Under the pieces are notes generated by a model, which did not search any database, was not told the origin of the DNA, and saw only the letters and a program-made list of their open reading frames with translations. From a bacterium (GTDB taxonomy: Bacteria > Patescibacteriota > Patescibacteriia > JAACEG01 > JAGUWE01): a stretch of DNA of 64,000 bases. Below, in pieces: positions 7,633 through 48,095 of the stretch (positions are counted from its first letter, which is position 1; every line of letters begins with the position of its first letter). The DNA lies in NCBI GenBank assembly GCA_043798995.1, contig JAZDOD010000011.1, positions 4,737-68,736 of the forward strand, read 5' to 3'. The position numbers were made by a program, and so were the translations under genes.

Positions 7633-7680
7633 AATAAAATTAAAATTTTAAAGATAGTTTTGCCTTTTTCGTTGTTATTT

Positions 7681-7745
7681 TTCCGCCCGAGGCGTGCGCC
7701 CGAGGCCCATCCGCCTCTGGCGGAGATCCGCCTTTGGCGGAAACT
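7681..7745. repeat. 64-bp palindromic MITE-like repeat (family B: TTCCGCC...CCGCCTTTGGCGGAA), intergenic copy
   Basis: Near-identical to copies at 13117-13180 and (reverse-complement) 46184-46245; terminal inverted repeat TTCCGCC/GGCGGAA. Confidence 0.7.
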
Positions 7746-12878: not shown

Positions 12879-14021
12879 ATGAAAAGTAACACAAAAAAGA
12901 ACTTAAGTCAAGGCACAAACAATCGATATCATATTATCACCCATGGTTGTCAGATGAATGTTTCTGACAGCGAAAAAATCGTCGGTCTTTTGGAAAGGCA
13001 GGGTTATCAGAAAGCTAAAGATGCTAAATCGGCCAATTTAGTAGTAATTAATGTTTGTTCGGTGCGCCAGTCGGCGATGGACCGCGTTTATAGTAAAATA
13101 AAAGAATTACGAATTTCCGCCCGAGGCGTGCGCCAGAGGTCCATCCGCCTTTGGCGGAGATCCGCCTTTGGCGGAAAGAATTTAAAATTATTCCCTGAGC
13201 AAAGTCGAAGGGTAAGAATAATTTTAGCGGGATGCCTTTTAGAGACAGATAAAAAGAAATTAAAAGATAAAGTTGATGAGATTTGGTATCCTGACAAATA
13301 TTTTAGCATGGCTTCTTGCCGTGAAAATAAAAATTTAGCTTACGTGCCGATTATGACGGGGTGTAATAATTTTTGCGCCTATTGCGTCGTGCCGTATACC
13401 AGAGGTAGGGAAAAATCAAGATCAGCGTTAGAGATTATTAAGGAAGTAAAAAGATTAATTAAAAGTGGCTATAAAGAAATTGTGTTGATAGGGCAGAATG
13501 TTAATAGCTATTCATGTAACATGGAACATGAAACCTGTAACACAATTAATTTTCCAAAATTATTGAAAATTATCAATGATTTGCCGGGTGATTTTTGGTT
13601 GCGATTTATGACGAGTCATCCTAAGGATATGTCGGATGAACTGATTGAGGCGGTGGCAAAATGCGGGAAAGTCAAAAAAGAAATTCACCTGCCAATCCAA
13701 AGCGGCGATGACGAAATTTTAAAAAAAATGAATCGTGGCTACACTGTGAAAAAATATAAAAATTTAATTAAAAAAATCCGTCAAAAAATACCCGGCGTTA
13801 AAATTTCTACTGACGTGATTGTCGGTTTTCCCGGCGAAACAAAAAAACAATTTCAAAATACAGCCAAGCTTTTCCGCCAAATTAAATTTAACAAGGCCTA
13901 CATTGCCAAATATTCTCCTCGTCATGGCACGGCTGCGGCTAAGCTCAAAGATGATGTTTCACCGCAGGAAAAGAAAAGACGCTGGCAGATTTTAGAAAAA
14001 ATAGCTAATCAAAAGAAATAA
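12879..14021 (+). CDS. miaB: tRNA methylthiotransferase (MiaB/RimO radical-SAM MTTase family) carrying an in-frame repeat insertion
   Basis: MTTase N-domain HGCQMNVSDSE, radical SAM CNNFCAYCVVPYTRG, TRAM region; in-frame foreign peptide from the repeat at 13117-13180. Confidence 0.85.
   Translation: MKSNTKKNLSQGTNNRYHIITHGCQMNVSDSEKIVGLLERQGYQKAKDAKSANLVVINVCSVRQSAMDRVYSKIKELRISARGVRQRSIRLWRRSAFGGKNLKLFPEQSRRVRIILAGCLLETDKKKLKDKVDEIWYPDKYFSMASCRENKNLAYVPIMTGCNNFCAYCVVPYTRGREKSRSALEIIKEVKRLIKSGYKEIVLIGQNVNSYSCNMEHETCNTINFPKLLKIINDLPGDFWLRFMTSHPKDMSDELIEAVAKCGKVKKEIHLPIQSGDDEILKKMNRGYTVKKYKNLIKKIRQKIPGVKISTDVIVGFPGETKKQFQNTAKLFRQIKFNKAYIAKYSPRHGTAAAKLKDDVSPQEKKRRWQILEKIANQKK
13117..13180. repeat. 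Family-B 64-bp palindromic repeat inserted in frame within miaB
   Basis: Near-identical to 7681-7745; encodes SARGVRQRSIRLWRRSAFGGK without stop codons. Confidence 0.7.
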
Positions 14022-14029
14022 ATAAAAAT

Positions 14030-15058
14030 ATGTCAACTCTTTCACTTAAACCACCAAAAATTATCGCTGTTTTAGGAACAACCGCTTCGGGCAAAACCAA
14101 GCTGGCAGTTAGATTAGCTTATCTGTTTAATGGTGAGATTGTCTCAGCTGACAGCCGACAGGTTTATCAAGGTATGGATATCGGGACAGGGAAAGATCTT
14201 GACGATTATATCATCAAAGTCAAAAGTCCCATGCCTACCGGCCCGCTTCGCCGTAGCTTCAGCGAGGCGAGCAGGCAGGAAAAGTCAAAAGTCAAAATTT
14301 TTGAAATTCCATATTATTTAATTGATGTGGTAAGCCCCAAAAAGCAGTTTAATCTGGCGGATTATCAACGTTTGGCTTATCAGGCAATTGATAAAATTTT
14401 AAAAAAAGGCAAACTGCCAATCTTAGCCGGCGGCAGCGGACTCTACCTTCAGGCCGCGGTTGATGGCTGGCTTTTATCAAAAGCAAGACCAGACAGAAAA
14501 TTACGCCAAGAATTAGAAAAGAAGAAAACGAGCTGGCTTTTTTCTTTTTTAAAGAAACTGGATAAAGATTTTGCTAAAAAAGTCAGTCAAAGTGATCAAA
14601 AAAATAAAAGGCGACTGATTAGATATATTGAAATAAAATTAGTCGAGACAAAGAGATTGCCACACTCCTTTCAATCGCTCGCAATGACAGGAGGTGGATA
14701 TGATACCTTACTTCTCGGCCTTACTTATCCCAAAGAAACTTTAAACCAAAGAATTGATAAAAGACTGGAGGAGCGGCTTGAACAAGGTCTGATTGAAGAA
14801 GTTAAAAGATTGCGTCAACAAGGTTTAAACTGGCAGCGTTTAGAGCAATTCGGCCTGGAGTATAAATTTGTGGCTTATTATCTGCAGGGCAAATTAGATT
14901 ATGAAGAAATGGCAGAAAAATTAAAAACAGCAATTCAGCAATTTGCTAAAAGGCAACTTACTTGGTTTCGGCGCTGGCAGAAAATGGGGGCTAAAATTCA
15001 TTGGATAAAAAGTGAAAATGAGGCCAAAAAATTGATTAAAAAATTTTTAAAAAGATAA
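14030..15058 (+). CDS. miaA: tRNA dimethylallyltransferase
   Basis: P-loop GTTASGKT, SADSRQVYQGMDIGT, LAGGSGLY; ~25 extra residues from repeat at 14226-14285. Confidence 0.9.
   Translation: MSTLSLKPPKIIAVLGTTASGKTKLAVRLAYLFNGEIVSADSRQVYQGMDIGTGKDLDDYIIKVKSPMPTGPLRRSFSEASRQEKSKVKIFEIPYYLIDVVSPKKQFNLADYQRLAYQAIDKILKKGKLPILAGGSGLYLQAAVDGWLLSKARPDRKLRQELEKKKTSWLFSFLKKLDKDFAKKVSQSDQKNKRRLIRYIEIKLVETKRLPHSFQSLAMTGGGYDTLLLGLTYPKETLNQRIDKRLEERLEQGLIEEVKRLRQQGLNWQRLEQFGLEYKFVAYYLQGKLDYEEMAEKLKTAIQQFAKRQLTWFRRWQKMGAKIHWIKSENEAKKLIKKFLKR
14226..14285. repeat. Palindromic repeat (family E) inserted in frame in miaA
   Basis: GGCCCGCTTCGCCGTAGCTTCAGCGAGGCGAGCAGGCAGG is the reverse complement of the repeat at 39950-40010; flanked by AAAGTCAAAAGTC direct repeats. 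Confidence 0.5.
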
Positions 15059-22339: not shown

Positions 22340-22384
22340 ACTTTTCCAAAAAATTCGAAATTCGAAGCACGAAATTCGAAACAA

Positions 22385-22517
22385 TATTTAATTTTTTAAA
22401 TTCCAAACAATTTTGAATTTTGGAATTTATAATTTGTGATTTGTTTAGTATTTCGCCCCTATCATTCGATGGGGCGACCCGTCGGATGACTGGGTCGGAT
22501 TTGGGGTTTCGGATTTG
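22385..22517 (-). promoter_or_regulatory. Structured rplK-rplA leader (candidate L1 autoregulatory site)
   Basis: Hairpins GACCCAGTCATCCGACGGGTC and GCCCCATCGAATGATAGGGGC on the mRNA strand, tandem TTCGAA-containing repeats; not U-rich. Confidence 0.3.
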
Positions 22518-28840: not shown

Positions 28841-29230
28841 TGTCATTGCGATCCGCCAGCTGGCGGAGAAGCAATCTCTTCCTTAATTTATGAAACACAA
28901 AAAATACTATGTCTATATAATGACTAATAAAACTAACTCCACGCTTTATAGCGGTGTAACAAATAATCTTAAAGAGAGAGTCTATCAACATAAAGGCAAA
29001 TTAATCGAAGGATTTACTAAAAAGTATAACATTAATAAATTAGTTTATTATGAGGAGTTTAACAATGCTTACGATGCAATCGCTCGAGAGAAACAAATTA
29101 AAGCGGGTTCAAGGAAAAAGAAAATTGAACTAATTGAGAAAGAAAATAAAAATTGGAAGAATTTAAGCGAAGATTGGTAAAGTGAGATTGCCGCGTCGTC
29201 CTGCCTGCGGCGGGACTCCTCGCAATGACA
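28841..29230. mobile_element. ~390-bp GIY-YIG-encoding unit with symmetric ends (TGTCATTGCGA-hairpin-GCAATCTC ... GAGATTGC-hairpin-TCGCAATGACA)
   Basis: 11-bp TIR TGTCATTGCGA/TCGCAATGACA plus inner inverted pair GCAATCTC/GAGATTGC; isolated ends at 11909 and 50748. Confidence 0.6.
28890..29180 (+). CDS. GIY-YIG nuclease family small protein
   Basis: YYVYIMTNKTNSTLYSGVTNNLKERVYQHK; paralog of 19193-19477. Confidence 0.8.
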   Translation: MKHKKYYVYIMTNKTNSTLYSGVTNNLKERVYQHKGKLIEGFTKKYNINKLVYYEEFNNAYDAIAREKQIKAGSRKKKIELIEKENKNWKNLSEDW

Positions 29231-29244
29231 AAAACACAAACTCC

Positions 29245-39547: not shown

Positions 39548-39680
39548 CCCCACTTAGTGGGGTCATCCCGAGTGCAGCTCCGTCTAACGGAGCGAAGTCG
39601 AGGGATCCCGTTTAATGAAATAAGAGATCCTCGCGTCGTCCCGCCTTTGGCGGGACTCCTCAGGATGACAAGAAAGTAAT

Positions 39681-39865
39681 CCCCCCTGTGGATAACTTTT
39701 AACAAAAGGACTTGACAAGTTTTTTTTAAAATAGTAAAGTAAAGGCACAATCAACAAACACCACACTCTATATCTATCAGCCATCGACGGCACCAAAAAC
39801 CCAAACAACCAACCCAACCCCACAAACAATCAAACCAAAACACATACTTTTTTTATTGGTAAAAA
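39681..39865 (+). repeat. 185-bp repeat copy 1: DnaA box + TTGACA promoter + CA-rich unstructured segment + U7 (candidate sRNA)
   Basis: TGTGGATAA at 39687-39695; ~95% identical to 40279-40463; (CAA/AAC)n-rich stretch ending CATACTTTTTTTATTGG. Confidence 0.5.
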
Positions 39866-40045
39866 ATTTTCCTTTGTCTTTCAGGGCTTATTAAAATGTC
39901 ATACTGAACTCGTTTCAGTATCTCACAGAGAATTCAAAAAGAGATCCCAAAACCCGCCTGCTCGCCTCGCTGAAGCTTATGACGAAGCGGGCCAACGAGG
40001 CAGGCAAATTCGGGACGACAACTTAAGAATAAGGAATAATAAGCC

Positions 40046-40278: not shown

Positions 40279-40463
40279 CCCCTTGTGGATAACTTTTAGC
40301 AAAAGGACTTGACAGGCCTTTTTTAAAATAGTAAAGTAAAGGCACAATCAACAAACACCACACTCTATATCTATCAGCCATCGACGGCACCAAAAACCCA
40401 AACAACCAACCCAACCCCACAACCCAATCAAACCAAAACACATACTTTTTTTATTGGTAAAAA
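40279..40463 (+). repeat. 185-bp repeat copy 2 (DnaA box + promoter + CA-rich segment), followed by a terminator hairpin
   Basis: TGTGGATAA at 40285-40293; downstream GAACTCC-TCATC-GGAGTTTTTTT. Confidence 0.5.
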
Positions 40464-44940: not shown

Positions 44941-46050
44941 ATGATAAAAACCAAAAAAATTTGTCCTGAGCACTTCGATTTCACTCAGTGTAAACTTCGT
45001 CAAAGGGTTTTAGTGGCCATGTCCGGCGGAGTTGATTCGTCGGTGGCGGCTTGGCTTTTAAAAAAACAAGGATTTGAGGTTAGGGGAGTTTTTTTGAATT
45101 TAGGGCAAGTTAAATATAAAGAATCAGTTGTGGCAACTAAAAGAGTAGCTAAAAAGATAGGCATTCCCTTTCGAGTTATTGATATAAGAAAAGAATTTGA
45201 AAAGGAAGTGGTTGATTATTTCTTGCAAAGTTATTTCCATGGCCTGACACCTAATCCTTGTGTAGTTTGCAACCAGAAAATTAAGTTTGAGACCCTTCTT
45301 AAATTGGCTAAAAAATATAGGGCCGATTTTGTGGCAACGGGTCATTATGCCCGGCTCCGCCGTAGCCGACAGCCGACAGCCGACAGCCGACATCTCTTAA
45401 TCCTTTGGCAAGCCAAAGACGAAAAAAAGGATCAGTCGTATTTTTTATATACTTTGAAGCAAAAACAATTGGCCAAAATATTATTCCCCCTGGGCAATTT
45501 AACCAAAGAGGAAGTAAAAAAAATAGCGGACAAAAATTATTTACCTTATTTCAAAAAAGAAAGTCAGGATATTTGTTTTTTATTTTGTGAAACTTCTGAA
45601 TTTTTAAAACAAAATCTTAAACTAAAGCCCGGGCCGATTGTCACAACAGCGGGCAAACTCATTGGCCGACACGAGGGCTTGCCGCTTTATACTTTAGGCC
45701 AGCGCCGAGCAGTTAAAATCGGCGGCATCGGGCCTTTTTATGTGGTCGGCCGCGATTTTAAAAAAAATCAATTAATTGTCACGGGCAAATTTGACGATTC
45801 GGTTTTGTATTCAGATAAACTTTTAGCCGGTCAAGTTAACTGGCTTGCTGGCGAAAGCCCAAAATTGCCTTTGAAATGTCGGGCGCGAGTCCGTTACCAA
45901 CAGCCATTGGTTGATTGCTTGGTCAGCAAAAAAGGCAAAAACTATCTGGTTAAATTCAAGCAAAAACTGCGCGCTATCACACCGGGACAGTCGGTGGTTT
46001 TCTATAAAAATAAAGAGATATTAGGCGGGGGAGTTATCGTTGACGAATAG
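44941..46050 (+). CDS. mnmA: tRNA-specific 2-thiouridylase
   Basis: PP-loop VAMSGGVDSSVAA, ATGHYARL, DQSYFLY; contains heptanucleotide repeat. Confidence 0.9.
   Translation: MIKTKKICPEHFDFTQCKLRQRVLVAMSGGVDSSVAAWLLKKQGFEVRGVFLNLGQVKYKESVVATKRVAKKIGIPFRVIDIRKEFEKEVVDYFLQSYFHGLTPNPCVVCNQKIKFETLLKLAKKYRADFVATGHYARLRRSRQPTADSRHLLILWQAKDEKKDQSYFLYTLKQKQLAKILFPLGNLTKEEVKKIADKNYLPYFKKESQDICFLFCETSEFLKQNLKLKPGPIVTTAGKLIGRHEGLPLYTLGQRRAVKIGGIGPFYVVGRDFKKNQLIVTGKFDDSVLYSDKLLAGQVNWLAGESPKLPLKCRARVRYQQPLVDCLVSKKGKNYLVKFKQKLRAITPGQSVVFYKNKEILGGGVIVDE
45364..45391 (+). repeat. Tandem heptanucleotide repeat (AGCCGAC)x4 inside mnmA
   Basis: Four perfect tandem 7-nt units translated as SRQPTADSR. Confidence 0.8.
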
Positions 46051-46142: not shown

Positions 46143-48095
46143 ATGACAGCTAAAGAAGTCCGCGAAAAATTTTTAGATTTTTTTTCCGCCAAAGGCGGAT
46201 CTCCGCCAAAGGCGGATGGACCTCTGGCGCACGCCTCGGGCGGAAAAGGTCATACCATTATCCCTTCGGCGCCGCTTGTTCCAGAAAACGATCCAACGGT
46301 GCTTTTTACTACGGCCGGTATGCATCCTTTGGTGCCTTATCTTCTGGGCGAAGACCATCCGGGTGGGAAAAGGGTGGCCAATGTTCAGATTTGCCTAAGA
46401 ACCGATGATATTGAAGAAATCGGCGACAATCGGCATTTGACTTTTTTTGAAATGCTGGGCAATTGGAGTTTCGGAGACTATTTTAAGCGCGAGGCGATTG
46501 AGTGGAGTTTTGAATTATTAACCTCTAAGGATAAAGGTTTTGCTTTGGATCCGAAACGATTATACGTCACAGTTTTTGGCGGCGTTAAAGAATTAGGTTT
46601 AGAGCGAGACGAAAAGTCAATTAAAATCTGGCAAGAAGTTTTTGCCAAAGCTGGTTTAAAAGCTGAAGTTGCCGACGAAGGTAATATTTGGAAAAATAAA
46701 AATATAAGAATTTTTCCTTTGGGCATGAAAGATAATTTTTGGGGACCGGTTGGAGAGATTGGTCCTTGCGGTCCTTGCACCGAAATGTATTATGATCTCC
46801 ACCCAAAAAAAAAACACAGCAAAGTATCATTTGATGATTTGATTGATCAGTTTAGATTTTTGGAAATTTGGAATGATGTTTTTATGGAATTTAATAAACT
46901 GTCCGATGATAAATATGAATTGTTAAAGCAAAAAAACGTTGATACGGGTATGGGCGTGGAACGAATGTTAGCCGTCTTAAATAATAAAGAGAATATTTTT
47001 GACATAGAACTTTTTAGCGCAGTTTTTGAAAGTATAAAAAAATTGTCGGATAAAAATTATAATAATTGTCAAAAGGAATTTAGAATTATAGCCGACCACT
47101 TAAAAGCCGCGGTTTTTATCTTGGCGGAAAACATTGAACCGTCTAACGTTGATCGCGGCTATGTGCTTCGCCGTCTTATTCGCCGGGCCATTCGTTGCGG
47201 CAAACAAATCGGCATTAAAACTCCTTTCACCCATAAAATCGCCGAAGTTATCATTAATCTTTATCAAGATCCGTATTTGCATCTAAAGAAAAATCAGGAT
47301 TTTATTATTGAGCAACTGGTCAGAGAAGAAGAAAAGTTTGGCGAAACCCTGGAAAAAGGTTTAAAACAATTTAAATTTTTAATCAGGCGTAAATTAATAA
47401 TTACTCCCGTTGAACCGGGATCGCCAACCACCGATATAAAAGATAAAATGAAAATTACTGGCAGAGAAGCGTTTGATTTATATCAGACCTACGGTTTCCC
47501 CTTAGAGTTAATAAAAGAATTGGCAAGAGAAAATAGATTTACAGTTGATGAAGATGGTTTTAATGAGGAAATGAAACACCATCAAGAGCTTTCGCGCACT
47601 GCCGCGGCCGGTATGTTCAAGGGCGGTCTTTCAGACCATTCGGAAATTGCTACCCGCTATCATACGGCCACGCATTTGCTTTTGGCGAGCTTACGGAAAG
47701 TTTTGGGCGAACACGTTTTTCAGCGCGGCTCAAATATTACGGCCGAAAGATTGCGTTTTGATTTTTCCCATTCGGAAAAGTTGACGCCCGAGCAGATTAA
47801 ACAGGTTGAAGATTTGGTTAATCAAAAAATTCAAGAAGGTCTGCCGGTCAAGGTTGAAGAAATGACGGTTAACGAAGCCAAAGCCCAAGGCGCTATCGGC
47901 GTTTTTGAGCAAAAATACGGCGAGCGAGTTAAGGTTTATACGATTGGCCTCTCGACAAGCTCGGGGTCTATTTTCAGTCAGGAAATTTGCGGCGGACCGC
48001 ATATTAAAAATACCCGACAGCTTGGTAAATTTAAGATTATTAGAGAAGAGGCTAGCTCTGCTGGTGTAAGGAGAATAAAAGCGGTATTGGAGTGA
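46143..48095 (+). CDS. alaS: Alanine--tRNA ligase (short form lacking C-terminal domain) with in-frame repeat insertion
   Basis: FLDFFSAKG...HTIIPSAPLVPENDPTVLFTTAGM, editing-domain HTATHLL, CGGPH; 650 aa. Confidence 0.9.
   Translation: MTAKEVREKFLDFFSAKGGSPPKADGPLAHASGGKGHTIIPSAPLVPENDPTVLFTTAGMHPLVPYLLGEDHPGGKRVANVQICLRTDDIEEIGDNRHLTFFEMLGNWSFGDYFKREAIEWSFELLTSKDKGFALDPKRLYVTVFGGVKELGLERDEKSIKIWQEVFAKAGLKAEVADEGNIWKNKNIRIFPLGMKDNFWGPVGEIGPCGPCTEMYYDLHPKKKHSKVSFDDLIDQFRFLEIWNDVFMEFNKLSDDKYELLKQKNVDTGMGVERMLAVLNNKENIFDIELFSAVFESIKKLSDKNYNNCQKEFRIIADHLKAAVFILAENIEPSNVDRGYVLRRLIRRAIRCGKQIGIKTPFTHKIAEVIINLYQDPYLHLKKNQDFIIEQLVREEEKFGETLEKGLKQFKFLIRRKLIITPVEPGSPTTDIKDKMKITGREAFDLYQTYGFPLELIKELARENRFTVDEDGFNEEMKHHQELSRTAAAGMFKGGLSDHSEIATRYHTATHLLLASLRKVLGEHVFQRGSNITAERLRFDFSHSEKLTPEQIKQVEDLVNQKIQEGLPVKVEEMTVNEAKAQGAIGVFEQKYGERVKVYTIGLSTSSGSIFSQEICGGPHIKNTRQLGKFKIIREEASSAGVRRIKAVLE
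46184..46245. repeat. Family-B 64-bp palindromic repeat (reverse orientation) in frame within alaS codons ~15-35
   Basis: Reverse complement matches 13117-13180; encodes GSPPKADGPLAHASGGKG between conserved FFSAKG and HTII. Confidence 0.7.

Follow-up and report, generated by a model that had tools for sequence, protein, structure and literature searches.

A short GC-rich palindromic repeat lying in frame in a Patescibacteria miaA gene belongs to a family dispersed across many candidate phyla

Introduction

How does a GC-rich palindrome come to lie, in frame, inside an intact tRNA-modification gene, and is it of any use to that gene? The question is raised by a 64,000-nucleotide (nt) stretch of DNA, referred to below as the window, from a metagenome-assembled genome (MAG) of a Patescibacteriota bacterium (assembly GCA_043798995.1, contig JAZDOD010000011.1, positions 4,737 to 68,736 of the forward strand), which is AT-rich throughout (~36-46% GC in 2-kb steps). 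Its miaA gene (window positions 14030..15058, plus strand), encoding tRNA dimethylallyltransferase as an intact open reading frame (ORF) of 342 amino acids (aa), contains a copy of a palindromic repeat, family E, that a first-pass annotation of the sequence had described as flanked by AAAGTC direct repeats, a candidate target-site duplication. Here we show that the segment is a member of a widely distributed family with frequent in-frame copies, that it represents a 51-nt gain at a tolerant site, and that no target-site duplication accompanied it. The explanation that we favor, with a probability of roughly 80%, is that miaA tolerates in this segment a selfish, non-autonomous hairpin element, one comparable in kind to the palindromic elements of Rickettsia and the GC clusters of yeast mitochondria.

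The family E copy in miaA

The repeat is located inside miaA where the first-pass annotation had placed it, and its limits, set by anchoring on 40 copies from other genomes, are 14230..14279 on the plus strand, i.e., a 50-nt element (CATGCCTACCGGCCCGCTTCGCCGTAGCTTCAGCGAGGCGAGCAGGCAGG). A profile built only from copies outside the window (nhmmer, applied to the whole window) recovered this element (E=1.2e-16) and, on the minus strand, a second copy (40003-39954, E=9.9e-12), with no further copies beyond those two. The second copy (39953..40006, minus strand, as supported by blastn, nhmmer and folding) has a longer left arm and loop. Its kinship with the miaA repeat as a reverse complement, noted earlier for the region 39950-40010, was upheld by blastn (38 nt aligned, 92% identity, one indel, E=1.8e-7), the match at 39956-39993 on the minus strand being the only other significant one in the window for a query covering 14226-14290. 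A 37-mer search with up to 3 mismatches matched the miaA copy alone because the second copy carries the indel. The second copy is intergenic: a single ORF of at least 50 aa covers it, a minus-strand TTG ORF of 52 aa, and an 89-aa ORF stops ~130 nt upstream of it.

The element is indeed a palindrome, in the form of an imperfect, GC-rich hairpin in both RNA and DNA folds. The predicted RNA folding energies are -25.4 kcal/mol for the miaA copy (z -2.7), -28.7 kcal/mol for the intergenic copy (z -3.0), in which an outer stem (TCCCGAA/TTTTGGGA) extends the hairpin, and -31.8 kcal/mol for the family consensus (z -3.1); as DNA, the miaA and intergenic copies fold at -12.1 and -14.9 kcal/mol, respectively. 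The in-frame state of the miaA copy was likewise confirmed, the element lying inside the 342-aa ORF that matches the Pfam IPPT domain (1.9e-60, residues 92-316), and it uses the coding frame that is most common in the family (consensus peptide LPAGPLRRSFSEASRQ, here MPTGPLRRSFSEASRQ).

The stretch of MiaA between the DIGTGK and IPYHLID motifs, where the element lies, is hypervariable in an alignment of 27 MiaA orthologs, and the length of this loop ranges from 9 to 60 residues in 115 of the 120 closest MiaA homologs (those in which both motifs were found). Among these 120 homologs the E-encoded peptide is present in the window protein only, and the three nearest orthologs, whose DNA (loci L001, L002 and L003) we fetched and aligned with the window, are free of E. 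The refuting case named in the first-pass annotation, in which orthologs lacking the repeat family would carry this segment too, was thus not borne out. In the closest of the three, L001, whose MiaA is 82% identical to that of the window by BLASTP and 87% in the alignment, a GC-rich segment is missing here and the flanks are collinear with those of the window; from ATC to GAA, L001 measures 45 nt and the window 96 nt, a difference of 51 nt that corresponds to the 50-nt element plus one base. That is, the insert adds 17 residues (51 nt) relative to the closest element-free ortholog, not the ~25 residues estimated at first. These data show a lineage-specific gain of 51 nt (17 codons) in miaA, and show further that the insertion site is a tolerant loop that was already variable in length; they support the view that a member of a dispersed palindromic family has inserted in frame into this gene.

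Exactly at the E site, L002 and L003 carry other small CCGCC...GGCGG hairpins that appear to be related to each other: in L002 (~2120-2200) a double hairpin, CCCGCCGAAGCGGG ATCCCGCCAAGGCGG, situated between CAATTACCAA repeats that are in different frames, and in L003 (~880-920) a single hairpin, CCCGCCAACCGGCGG. These observations suggest that the miaA loop is a hot spot of repeated hairpin turnover.

Structural comparisons point to the same loop. Solved MiaA structures align with the window protein in two blocks that skip its residues 57-91, having 6 residues there against 35 in the window protein, the latter number being the full length of its loop from DIGTGK to IPYYLID. In an AlphaFold2 (AF2) model of the window MiaA, with a mean predicted local distance difference test score (pLDDT) of 79.5, strands 61-65 and 88-92 form a beta-hairpin, and residues 66-87, largely encoded by E, form a coil at its tip, with pLDDT below 50 for residues 72-84. 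The insert is thus predicted by the model to be placed at the protein surface and to be compatible with the fold.

The rest of the host protein is that of a regular MiaA. It bears the features expected of the family (IPPT domain, P-loop, and DSxQVY and DIGT motifs) and a Pfam IPT match over residues 10-59, and it retains all of the invariant columns of the 27-sequence alignment, including G16-T23, D41-Y46 and D50-K55. It is 100% identical to an NCBI MAG protein named MiaA, its nearest named relatives (54-58% identity) come from Falkowbacteria, Parcubacteria-group and Patescibacteria-group MAGs, and MiaA structures in the PDB match it down to 5e-51. The adjacent miaB (12879-14021) is, like miaA (14030-15058), an intact ORF with the expected Pfam domains.

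Conservation and spread of family E

We scanned one genome per bacterial or archaeal species (representatives of 185,579 species, a collection that does not include the window's own genome) with a 20-mer common to both window copies (CTTCAGCGAGGCGAGCAGGC) and obtained 114 matching stretches. In GC-rich genomes (Streptomyces and others) the match with E is limited to the 20-mer itself; in ~45 low-GC contigs it extends on both sides to the same element. When copies are anchored on the 20-mer, conservation runs from 27 nt to its left to 3 nt to its right, which defines a 50-nt unit (CCTGCCTGCCGGCCCGCTTCGCCGGAGCTTCAGCGAGGCGAGCAGGCAGG). A scan of metagenomes with a degenerate 37-nt pattern added 44 contigs, and the pooled sample comprises, after de-duplication, 68 distinct E copies, exactly 50 nt long in 51 cases; a profile search of the fetched loci yielded only 6 more, diverged copies. 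The left half of E, which was unconstrained by the genome search, is mostly 85-98% conserved per position, with the loop apex (positions 24-25) and the outer left arm (positions 7-8) being most variable. The consensus has terminal inverted repeats of 9 bp (CCTGCCTGC/GCAGGCAGG); the right arm is fixed by the search words.

According to their titles, the E-bearing MAGs represent Sungii-, Lipton-, Niyogi-, Terry-, Kaiser-, Jorgensen-, Falkow-, Moran- and Shapirobacteria, Spechtbacterales, Paceibacterota and others, i.e., hosts from both the Parcubacteria and the Microgenomates groups, and the GC content of the E-bearing contigs is 0.36-0.60. Several low-GC E contigs (L017, L025, L041, L064, L079, L082 and others) come from co-assembly MAGs whose titles read 'uncultured Gammaproteobacteria' or 'Saccharibacteria'. 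Some of these labels, at least, seem to be mistaken: the record of L082, for instance, is titled Gammaproteobacteria, but its cysteinyl-tRNA synthetase (CysRS) groups with Daviesbacteria proteins. Taken together, family E is a small, dispersed, non-autonomous repeat with a low copy number per genome, found in many lineages of Patescibacteria, a group that also goes by the name of Candidate Phyla Radiation (CPR).

Searches of other collections returned little. No Rfam family matches E, either at gathering thresholds over the whole window or at permissive E-values around the intergenic copy, the output consisting of two tRNAs and chance-level matches only. The phage and viral collections gave chance matches to the 20-mer in GC-rich Arthrobacter phages plus one viral contig, whose flanks and GC content were not looked at, and these collections hold no evidence of a phage vehicle for E. 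An 82-aa concatenate of the five open E frames, searched against a collection of 5.8 billion proteins, returned 34 candidates and one weak match. Separately, three non-CPR MAGs titled Bacteroidetes or Melioribacteraceae (L020, L029 and L117) carry CTTCAGCGAGGCGAGCAGGCAGG, the right half of E, and directly behind it the same AT-rich tail of 30 nt in all three (TTCAAAGGTTTATTACTTAATTCA), and the left arm of E is absent from them; this may be a different conserved element that has a 23-mer in common with E.

Signs of proliferation within genomes are provided by copies with common private variants. The five copies in the Sungiibacteriota MAG JACPMF01 (L009, L042, L043, L052 and L112) all have CGTGCCGGCC...GGCGGG and the same flanking CCGCC hairpins, both E copies of L116 have a CGCCATAG loop, and a TA(A)G loop is common to the pair of copies in the window. 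A minority of copies are also nested in other palindromes: the flanks form a duplex with an energy of -10 kcal/mol or lower in 15% of copies vs. 2% of controls, five of the nested copies being a single JACPMF01 composite variant. Perfect inverted repeats directly abutting E were considered as well and rejected, as they showed no enrichment. In L090 (~1100-1175) and L006 (~360-440), the apical loop of E holds another GC-rich hairpin of ~20-30 nt.

Host genes, reading frames and possible function

Among the 68 copies, 26 (38%) are well inside long ORFs, 17 are near an ORF end and 25 have no long ORF around them, compared to 61% internal for random 50-nt windows of the same loci (Fisher p=2e-4). 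Hence, E is depleted in genes yet far from excluded from them. Pfam domains span or bracket E in six hosts, namely topoisomerase I (TopA), CysRS, ribosomal protein S1, a WecG glycosyltransferase and two arginyl-tRNA synthetases (ArgRS) that differ in the position of E; TrmD has E upstream of the Pfam match, and ribosomal protein S5 has it in the tail just after the C-terminal domain. The special link with tRNA-modification genes that the first-pass annotation had found striking dissolves in this broader sample, since the same E occurs in TopA, ArgRS (twice), CysRS, S1, TrmD and other genes.

The E consensus is free of stop codons in five of its six frames, and the use of these frames is biased: 14 of the 26 internal copies are read in the LPAGPLRRSFSEASRQ frame, as in MiaA (p=1.3e-4), and the orientation relative to the gene is skewed 21 to 5 (p=0.02). 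Selection for a harmless hydrophilic peptide would be expected to produce such biases in frame and orientation.

It could be argued instead that the insert is functional, e.g., that its structure in the mRNA slows down translation or shields the transcript, that it is a DNA or RNA site for a protein conserved across CPR, or that it provides MiaA with a useful surface loop. Strong conservation in distant lineages, including that of internal bulges outside the palindromic pairing, would be in line with such a role, as would the stability of the RNA hairpin (-25 to -32 kcal/mol) and the non-random coding frame and orientation, although purifying selection on tolerable peptides explains the frame bias equally well. 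However, the closest MiaA orthologs manage without E, and copies, found in either orientation and in five frames, occur at unrelated positions of unrelated proteins as well as between genes. Moreover, E is rarer in coding sequence than expected by chance, its distribution among genomes is sporadic, the peptide is modeled as a low-confidence coil, and there is no terminator-like or promoter-like signal at the element. We therefore regard a function of the insert as improbable.

Target sites and mode of insertion

The first-pass annotation had proposed a target-site duplication of AAAGTC around the miaA copy, and a 13-nt direct repeat (AAAGTCAAAAGTC) is indeed present on either side of it, at 14216-14228 and 14281-14293 (65 nt apart and in different reading frames). 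Together with the 9-bp terminal inverted repeats and the small size, multiple copies and non-coding nature of E, this repeat favors a classical miniature inverted-repeat transposable element (MITE), mobilized by a transposase and duplicating an AAAGTC(AAAAGTC) target. We consider this model very unlikely. The direct repeats turned out to be units of a 7-nt tandem array that is older than E: the left part (AAAGTCA AAAGTCC, 14216..14229, plus strand) encodes KVKS at the end of strand 61-65 (IIKVK), and the right part (A AAAGTCA AAAGTCA AAATTTT, 14280..14301, plus strand), for which Tandem Repeats Finder (TRF) reports at 14280-14297 a period of 7 (AAAAGTC, 2.6 units, 100% matches), encodes the KSKVKIF side of the beta-hairpin stalk. 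In the element-free L001 the array is uninterrupted (AAACTAA, 4.9 units, TRF score 54), and the arrays of L002 and L003 at this site carry CAATTAC and AAAATTA/AAAACTA. Since L001 has the array and lacks E, the heptamer array pre-dates the element. Further, a duplication of 13 nt plus the 52 nt enclosed would have added 65 nt and broken the frame, whereas the net gain is 51 nt; hence, the duplication model fails.

A second pair of filled and empty sites leads to the same result. The CysRS gene of L082, with E, can be compared to a 79%-identical ortholog without it (L163; 446 against 463 aa), and the two differ at the DNA level by a clean 51-nt gap (GAAAAAGG|E|GATTTG vs. CAGA|GGATTTG) with no flanking repeat. 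That is, the net gain is 51 nt in both pairs, miaA and CysRS, and any duplication is at most 1 nt. The mean length of the best flanking direct repeat over the 68 copies is 1.54 nt vs. 1.41 nt for mismatched flanks, so that further copies do not bear out a duplication either, and the miaA copy of the window is the only one with a flanking repeat longer than 6 nt. No target consensus was found within 12 nt on either side of E copies, the strongest flank bias being that T is avoided at -1 and A at +1. At the paired copies of L151 and L116 there is no transposase-like ORF between or beside the copies, ORFs being judged by reading rather than by a family search; those present resemble housekeeping or membrane genes, and a composite transposon or neighboring transposase was rejected for these two loci. 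Insertion that is clean, follows no target motif and has no visible enzyme argues against both classical cut-and-paste MITE transposition and targeting of the IS200/IS605 type.

A few observations concern the heptamer arrays themselves. E copies in L021, L111, L129 and L139 are also located in such arrays; as a general property of E flanks, however, heptamer periodicity was rejected, as only ~6 of 66 copies show it. In the window, heptamer arrays are the most common short tandem repeat (19 TRF rows of period 7 vs. 2.2 in shuffles preserving local composition), with sites at 14216-14301, 13513-13542, 45364-45392, 22351-22428 and others (in L001, at 94-116 and 836-869), and they occupy variable protein loops of miaA and miaB. 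The unit varies between close orthologs (AAAGTCA, AAACTAA, CAATTAC, AAAATTA), yet does not differ between the two sides of the hairpin. Judging from the peptides, CPR loop sequences such as IPNSKFQIPNKFQ are probably translated heptamer arrays.

A model for the origin of the insertion

Two further alternatives would remove the need for any insertion. The miaA segment might be an ancestral, fast-evolving loop of CPR MiaA proteins that resembles the intergenic sequence by chance or convergence, and it is true that the loop varies in every CPR MiaA and that many orthologs have GC-rich, hairpin-encoded peptides there. Nevertheless, the match to a profile defined in other genomes (E=1.2e-16), exact identity over 20 to 37 nt with copies in unrelated genes, the sharp 50-nt boundary, and the absence of E from L001 despite collinear flanks leave this alternative hardly credible. 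An assembly or binning artefact, i.e., a chimeric join placing the repeat in the miaA contig, is about as improbable: the source is a single MAG contig and repeats can mislead assemblers, but the insert keeps the frame exactly and its flanks are collinear, dozens of independent assemblies, produced by different projects with different assemblers, contain in-frame copies of this kind, and a 50-nt repeat is shorter than the reads or k-mers behind chimeras.

We thus return to the selfish hairpin element as the favored explanation. A copy of E landed, on the lineage of the window, in a pre-existing heptamer array within miaA, with a net addition of 51 nt, and under this model it would persist there because its GC-rich sequence is free of stop codons in five of the six frames. 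In essential genes, only insertions that are a multiple of three in length and fall into tolerant loops would be expected to survive, and such a selection filter would explain why the copy is in frame, why one benign hydrophilic frame is preferred and why housekeeping genes are hit repeatedly. E would bring no benefit to MiaA, being a selfish or neutral passenger of an otherwise intact gene. It would spread inside genomes and also from one genome to another, the latter being suggested by near-identical copies in distant candidate phyla, with mobilization occurring perhaps in trans, or through copying by recombination or replication acting on hairpin DNA.

Several points weigh against this model. 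Mobility is deduced from the distribution of copies and from presence or absence in relatives, with no transposition event, donor or enzyme seen, and a role of the hairpin in mRNA or DNA would still be compatible with the sequence. The searches called for an exact 20-mer or the 37-nt pattern, and thus the sample is skewed toward well-conserved copies and the cross-lineage identity is partly built in by the search words. Further, E is sporadic (~45 contigs among representatives of 185,579 species), and many taxon labels are automatic, some of them wrong. Finally, given the hairpins of L002 and L003 at the same place, an older hairpin may have been replaced by E, or invaded by it, instead of E having entered an unoccupied site.

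A bolder version of the model, which we consider speculative and rather unlikely as a whole, is that E and the other GC-rich hairpin families of the window are Patescibacteria-wide hairpin parasites that move horizontally between candidate phyla and integrate without an element-encoded or element-specific enzyme. In such a scenario, short DNA would be taken up by naturally competent cells and then inserted as a patch, mediated by microhomology or replication, at single-stranded or hairpin DNA, which would explain the clean insertions, the nesting in hairpins and loops, and the association with heptamer arrays. If true, hairpin parasites would represent a major, so far undescribed source of odd loop insertions in CPR housekeeping proteins.

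Comparison with known repeat elements

The closest parallels are the Rickettsia palindromic elements (RPEs). As far as covered by the summary in PMC10969869, RPE-1 to RPE-10 are in-frame palindromes in many Rickettsia housekeeping genes (Ogata et al. 2000 Science 290:347; 2002 Genome Res 12:808), ~100-150 bp long and found in one genus, with a conserved peptide per family and surface inserts that are thought to be compatible with the fold. E resembles RPEs in being palindromic, non-autonomous and in frame in unrelated housekeeping genes with a peptide that is conserved (LPAGPLRRSFSEASRQ, encoded by 14 of the 26 copies internal to ORFs), in having AT-rich, small-genome, host-dependent bacteria as hosts, and in providing a surface-compatible insert, as predicted for MiaA. 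Unlike RPEs, E is 50 nt long (three times shorter) and strongly GC-rich, and whereas RPEs are found in one genus, E copies at least 90% identical occur across many Patescibacteria candidate phyla. E is set apart from RPE-1 to RPE-10 by length and host, that is, by description rather than by sequence comparison.

The GC clusters of yeast mitochondria, described by Butow, Perlman and colleagues in the 1980s to 1990, are GC-rich palindromes of ~30-50 bp in an AT-rich genome, optional between strains, often with AT-rich repetitive flanks, and in some cases in frame in var1. They are organellar and spread by gene conversion in crosses, without a dedicated transposase, and some classes have short AT-rich flanking duplications. 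E is similar to them as a short GC-rich palindrome that is occasionally in frame in a protein gene, and differs from the latter classes by having no flanking duplication beyond 1 nt.

Repetitive extragenic palindromic sequences (REPs) are extragenic by definition and have a GTAG or CGTC tag at one end (PMC3733652). REPs and the bacterial interspersed mosaic elements (BIMEs) that accompany REP-associated tyrosine transposases (RAYTs, IS200/IS605-like, Y1) share with E short, imperfect, multi-copy hairpins, the lack of target-site duplication and occasional clustering or nesting. In contrast, E ends in CCTG...CAGG with no GTAG/CGTC tag, and 38% of the sampled copies are in genes; no RAYT-like gene was present in the two loci whose ORFs were read (L151 and L116), and no systematic search was made. 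The absence of duplication would fit palindromes derived from IS200/IS605, but a conserved target of 4-5 nt beside the left end is missing in E. Among bacterial MITEs, in-frame fusions are known for intragenic enterobacterial repetitive intergenic consensus (ERIC) sequences, Coxiella QMITE and Correia/NEMIS (PMC10969869, PMC5896051). These resemble E in small size, terminal inverted repeats and occasional intragenic, peptide-adding copies; however, they have target-site duplications and recognizable parent insertion sequences, and E has neither in the data examined.

Inverted repeats are tolerated in other reduced, AT-rich genomes as well, also within coding sequence, as with E. The mitochondrial DNA of Allomyces contains double-hairpin elements. 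In the mitochondrial genes of Nematomorpha, coding palindromes are perfect and up to 284 bp long (PMC6649704). The Nematomorpha palindromes are local structures, whereas E is a dispersed family common to several genomes.

We found nothing relevant in the literature, consisting of open-access papers only, on palindromic or in-frame repeat elements in CPR/Patescibacteria. In-frame selfish palindromes are thus a known kind of element for which we found no description from Patescibacteria, and, given the partial literature covered, novelty is unproven.

Implications

Protein-coding palindromes, which have been presented as a peculiarity of Rickettsia, are now also found in the Candidate Phyla Radiation, in a shorter, GC-rich form, with the same 50-mer occurring in members of both Parcubacteria and Microgenomates and in essential genes (topoisomerase I, aminoacyl-tRNA synthetases, S1, TrmD and MiaA). 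With E, there is a concrete explanation for a part of the so far unexplained loop insertions in CPR proteins, and inserts of this type should be allowed for in the annotation, alignment and structure prediction of CPR sequences. It also represents a sequence tag for tracing DNA exchange between CPR lineages. The practical outcome for miaA itself is modest, i.e., the insert is a tolerated passenger and the proposed duplication is not one; the near-identity of E across distant CPR lineages and its clean, duplication-free insertion are the features that deserve attention.

Other repeats in the window

A second repeat family, ~66 nt long and made of three CCGCC-type hairpins, has three copies in the window with 95-99% identity to each other, at 13114-13180 (in miaB), 7679-7743 and 46180-46247 (the last on the minus strand). 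The miaB copy is in frame (ISARGVRQRSIRLWRRSAFGGK...) and absent at that site from the miaB of L002, and none of the three copies has a flanking duplication. Hairpins of this type are also found beside the E copies of the Sungiibacteriota MAG JACPMF01, flanking them as a composite.

A third family is also in frame in miaA, at 14653-14696 (residues ~208-223; GAGATTGCC...CTCGCAATGACA, encoding RLPHSFQSLAMTGG), with relatives at 29184-29231 and 39624-39671 and diverged versions in all three close orthologs; in the AF2 model of MiaA, pLDDT is below 50 for residues 210-221 of this segment.

The surroundings of the second E copy are rich in repeats as well. Upstream of it, at 39560-39675, there are two further hairpin families (GTCATCCCGAG...CGAGGGATC and GAGATCCTCGCG...CTCAGGATGACA), and a 159-nt direct repeat, 92% identical, is found at 39682-39840 and 40279-40437. 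In each copy of the latter, a TTGACA-type box precedes ~110 nt of CA-rich sequence that is poor in G and closes with a T-run. The pair, which has no Rfam match at gathering thresholds, may represent a duplicated small-RNA gene.

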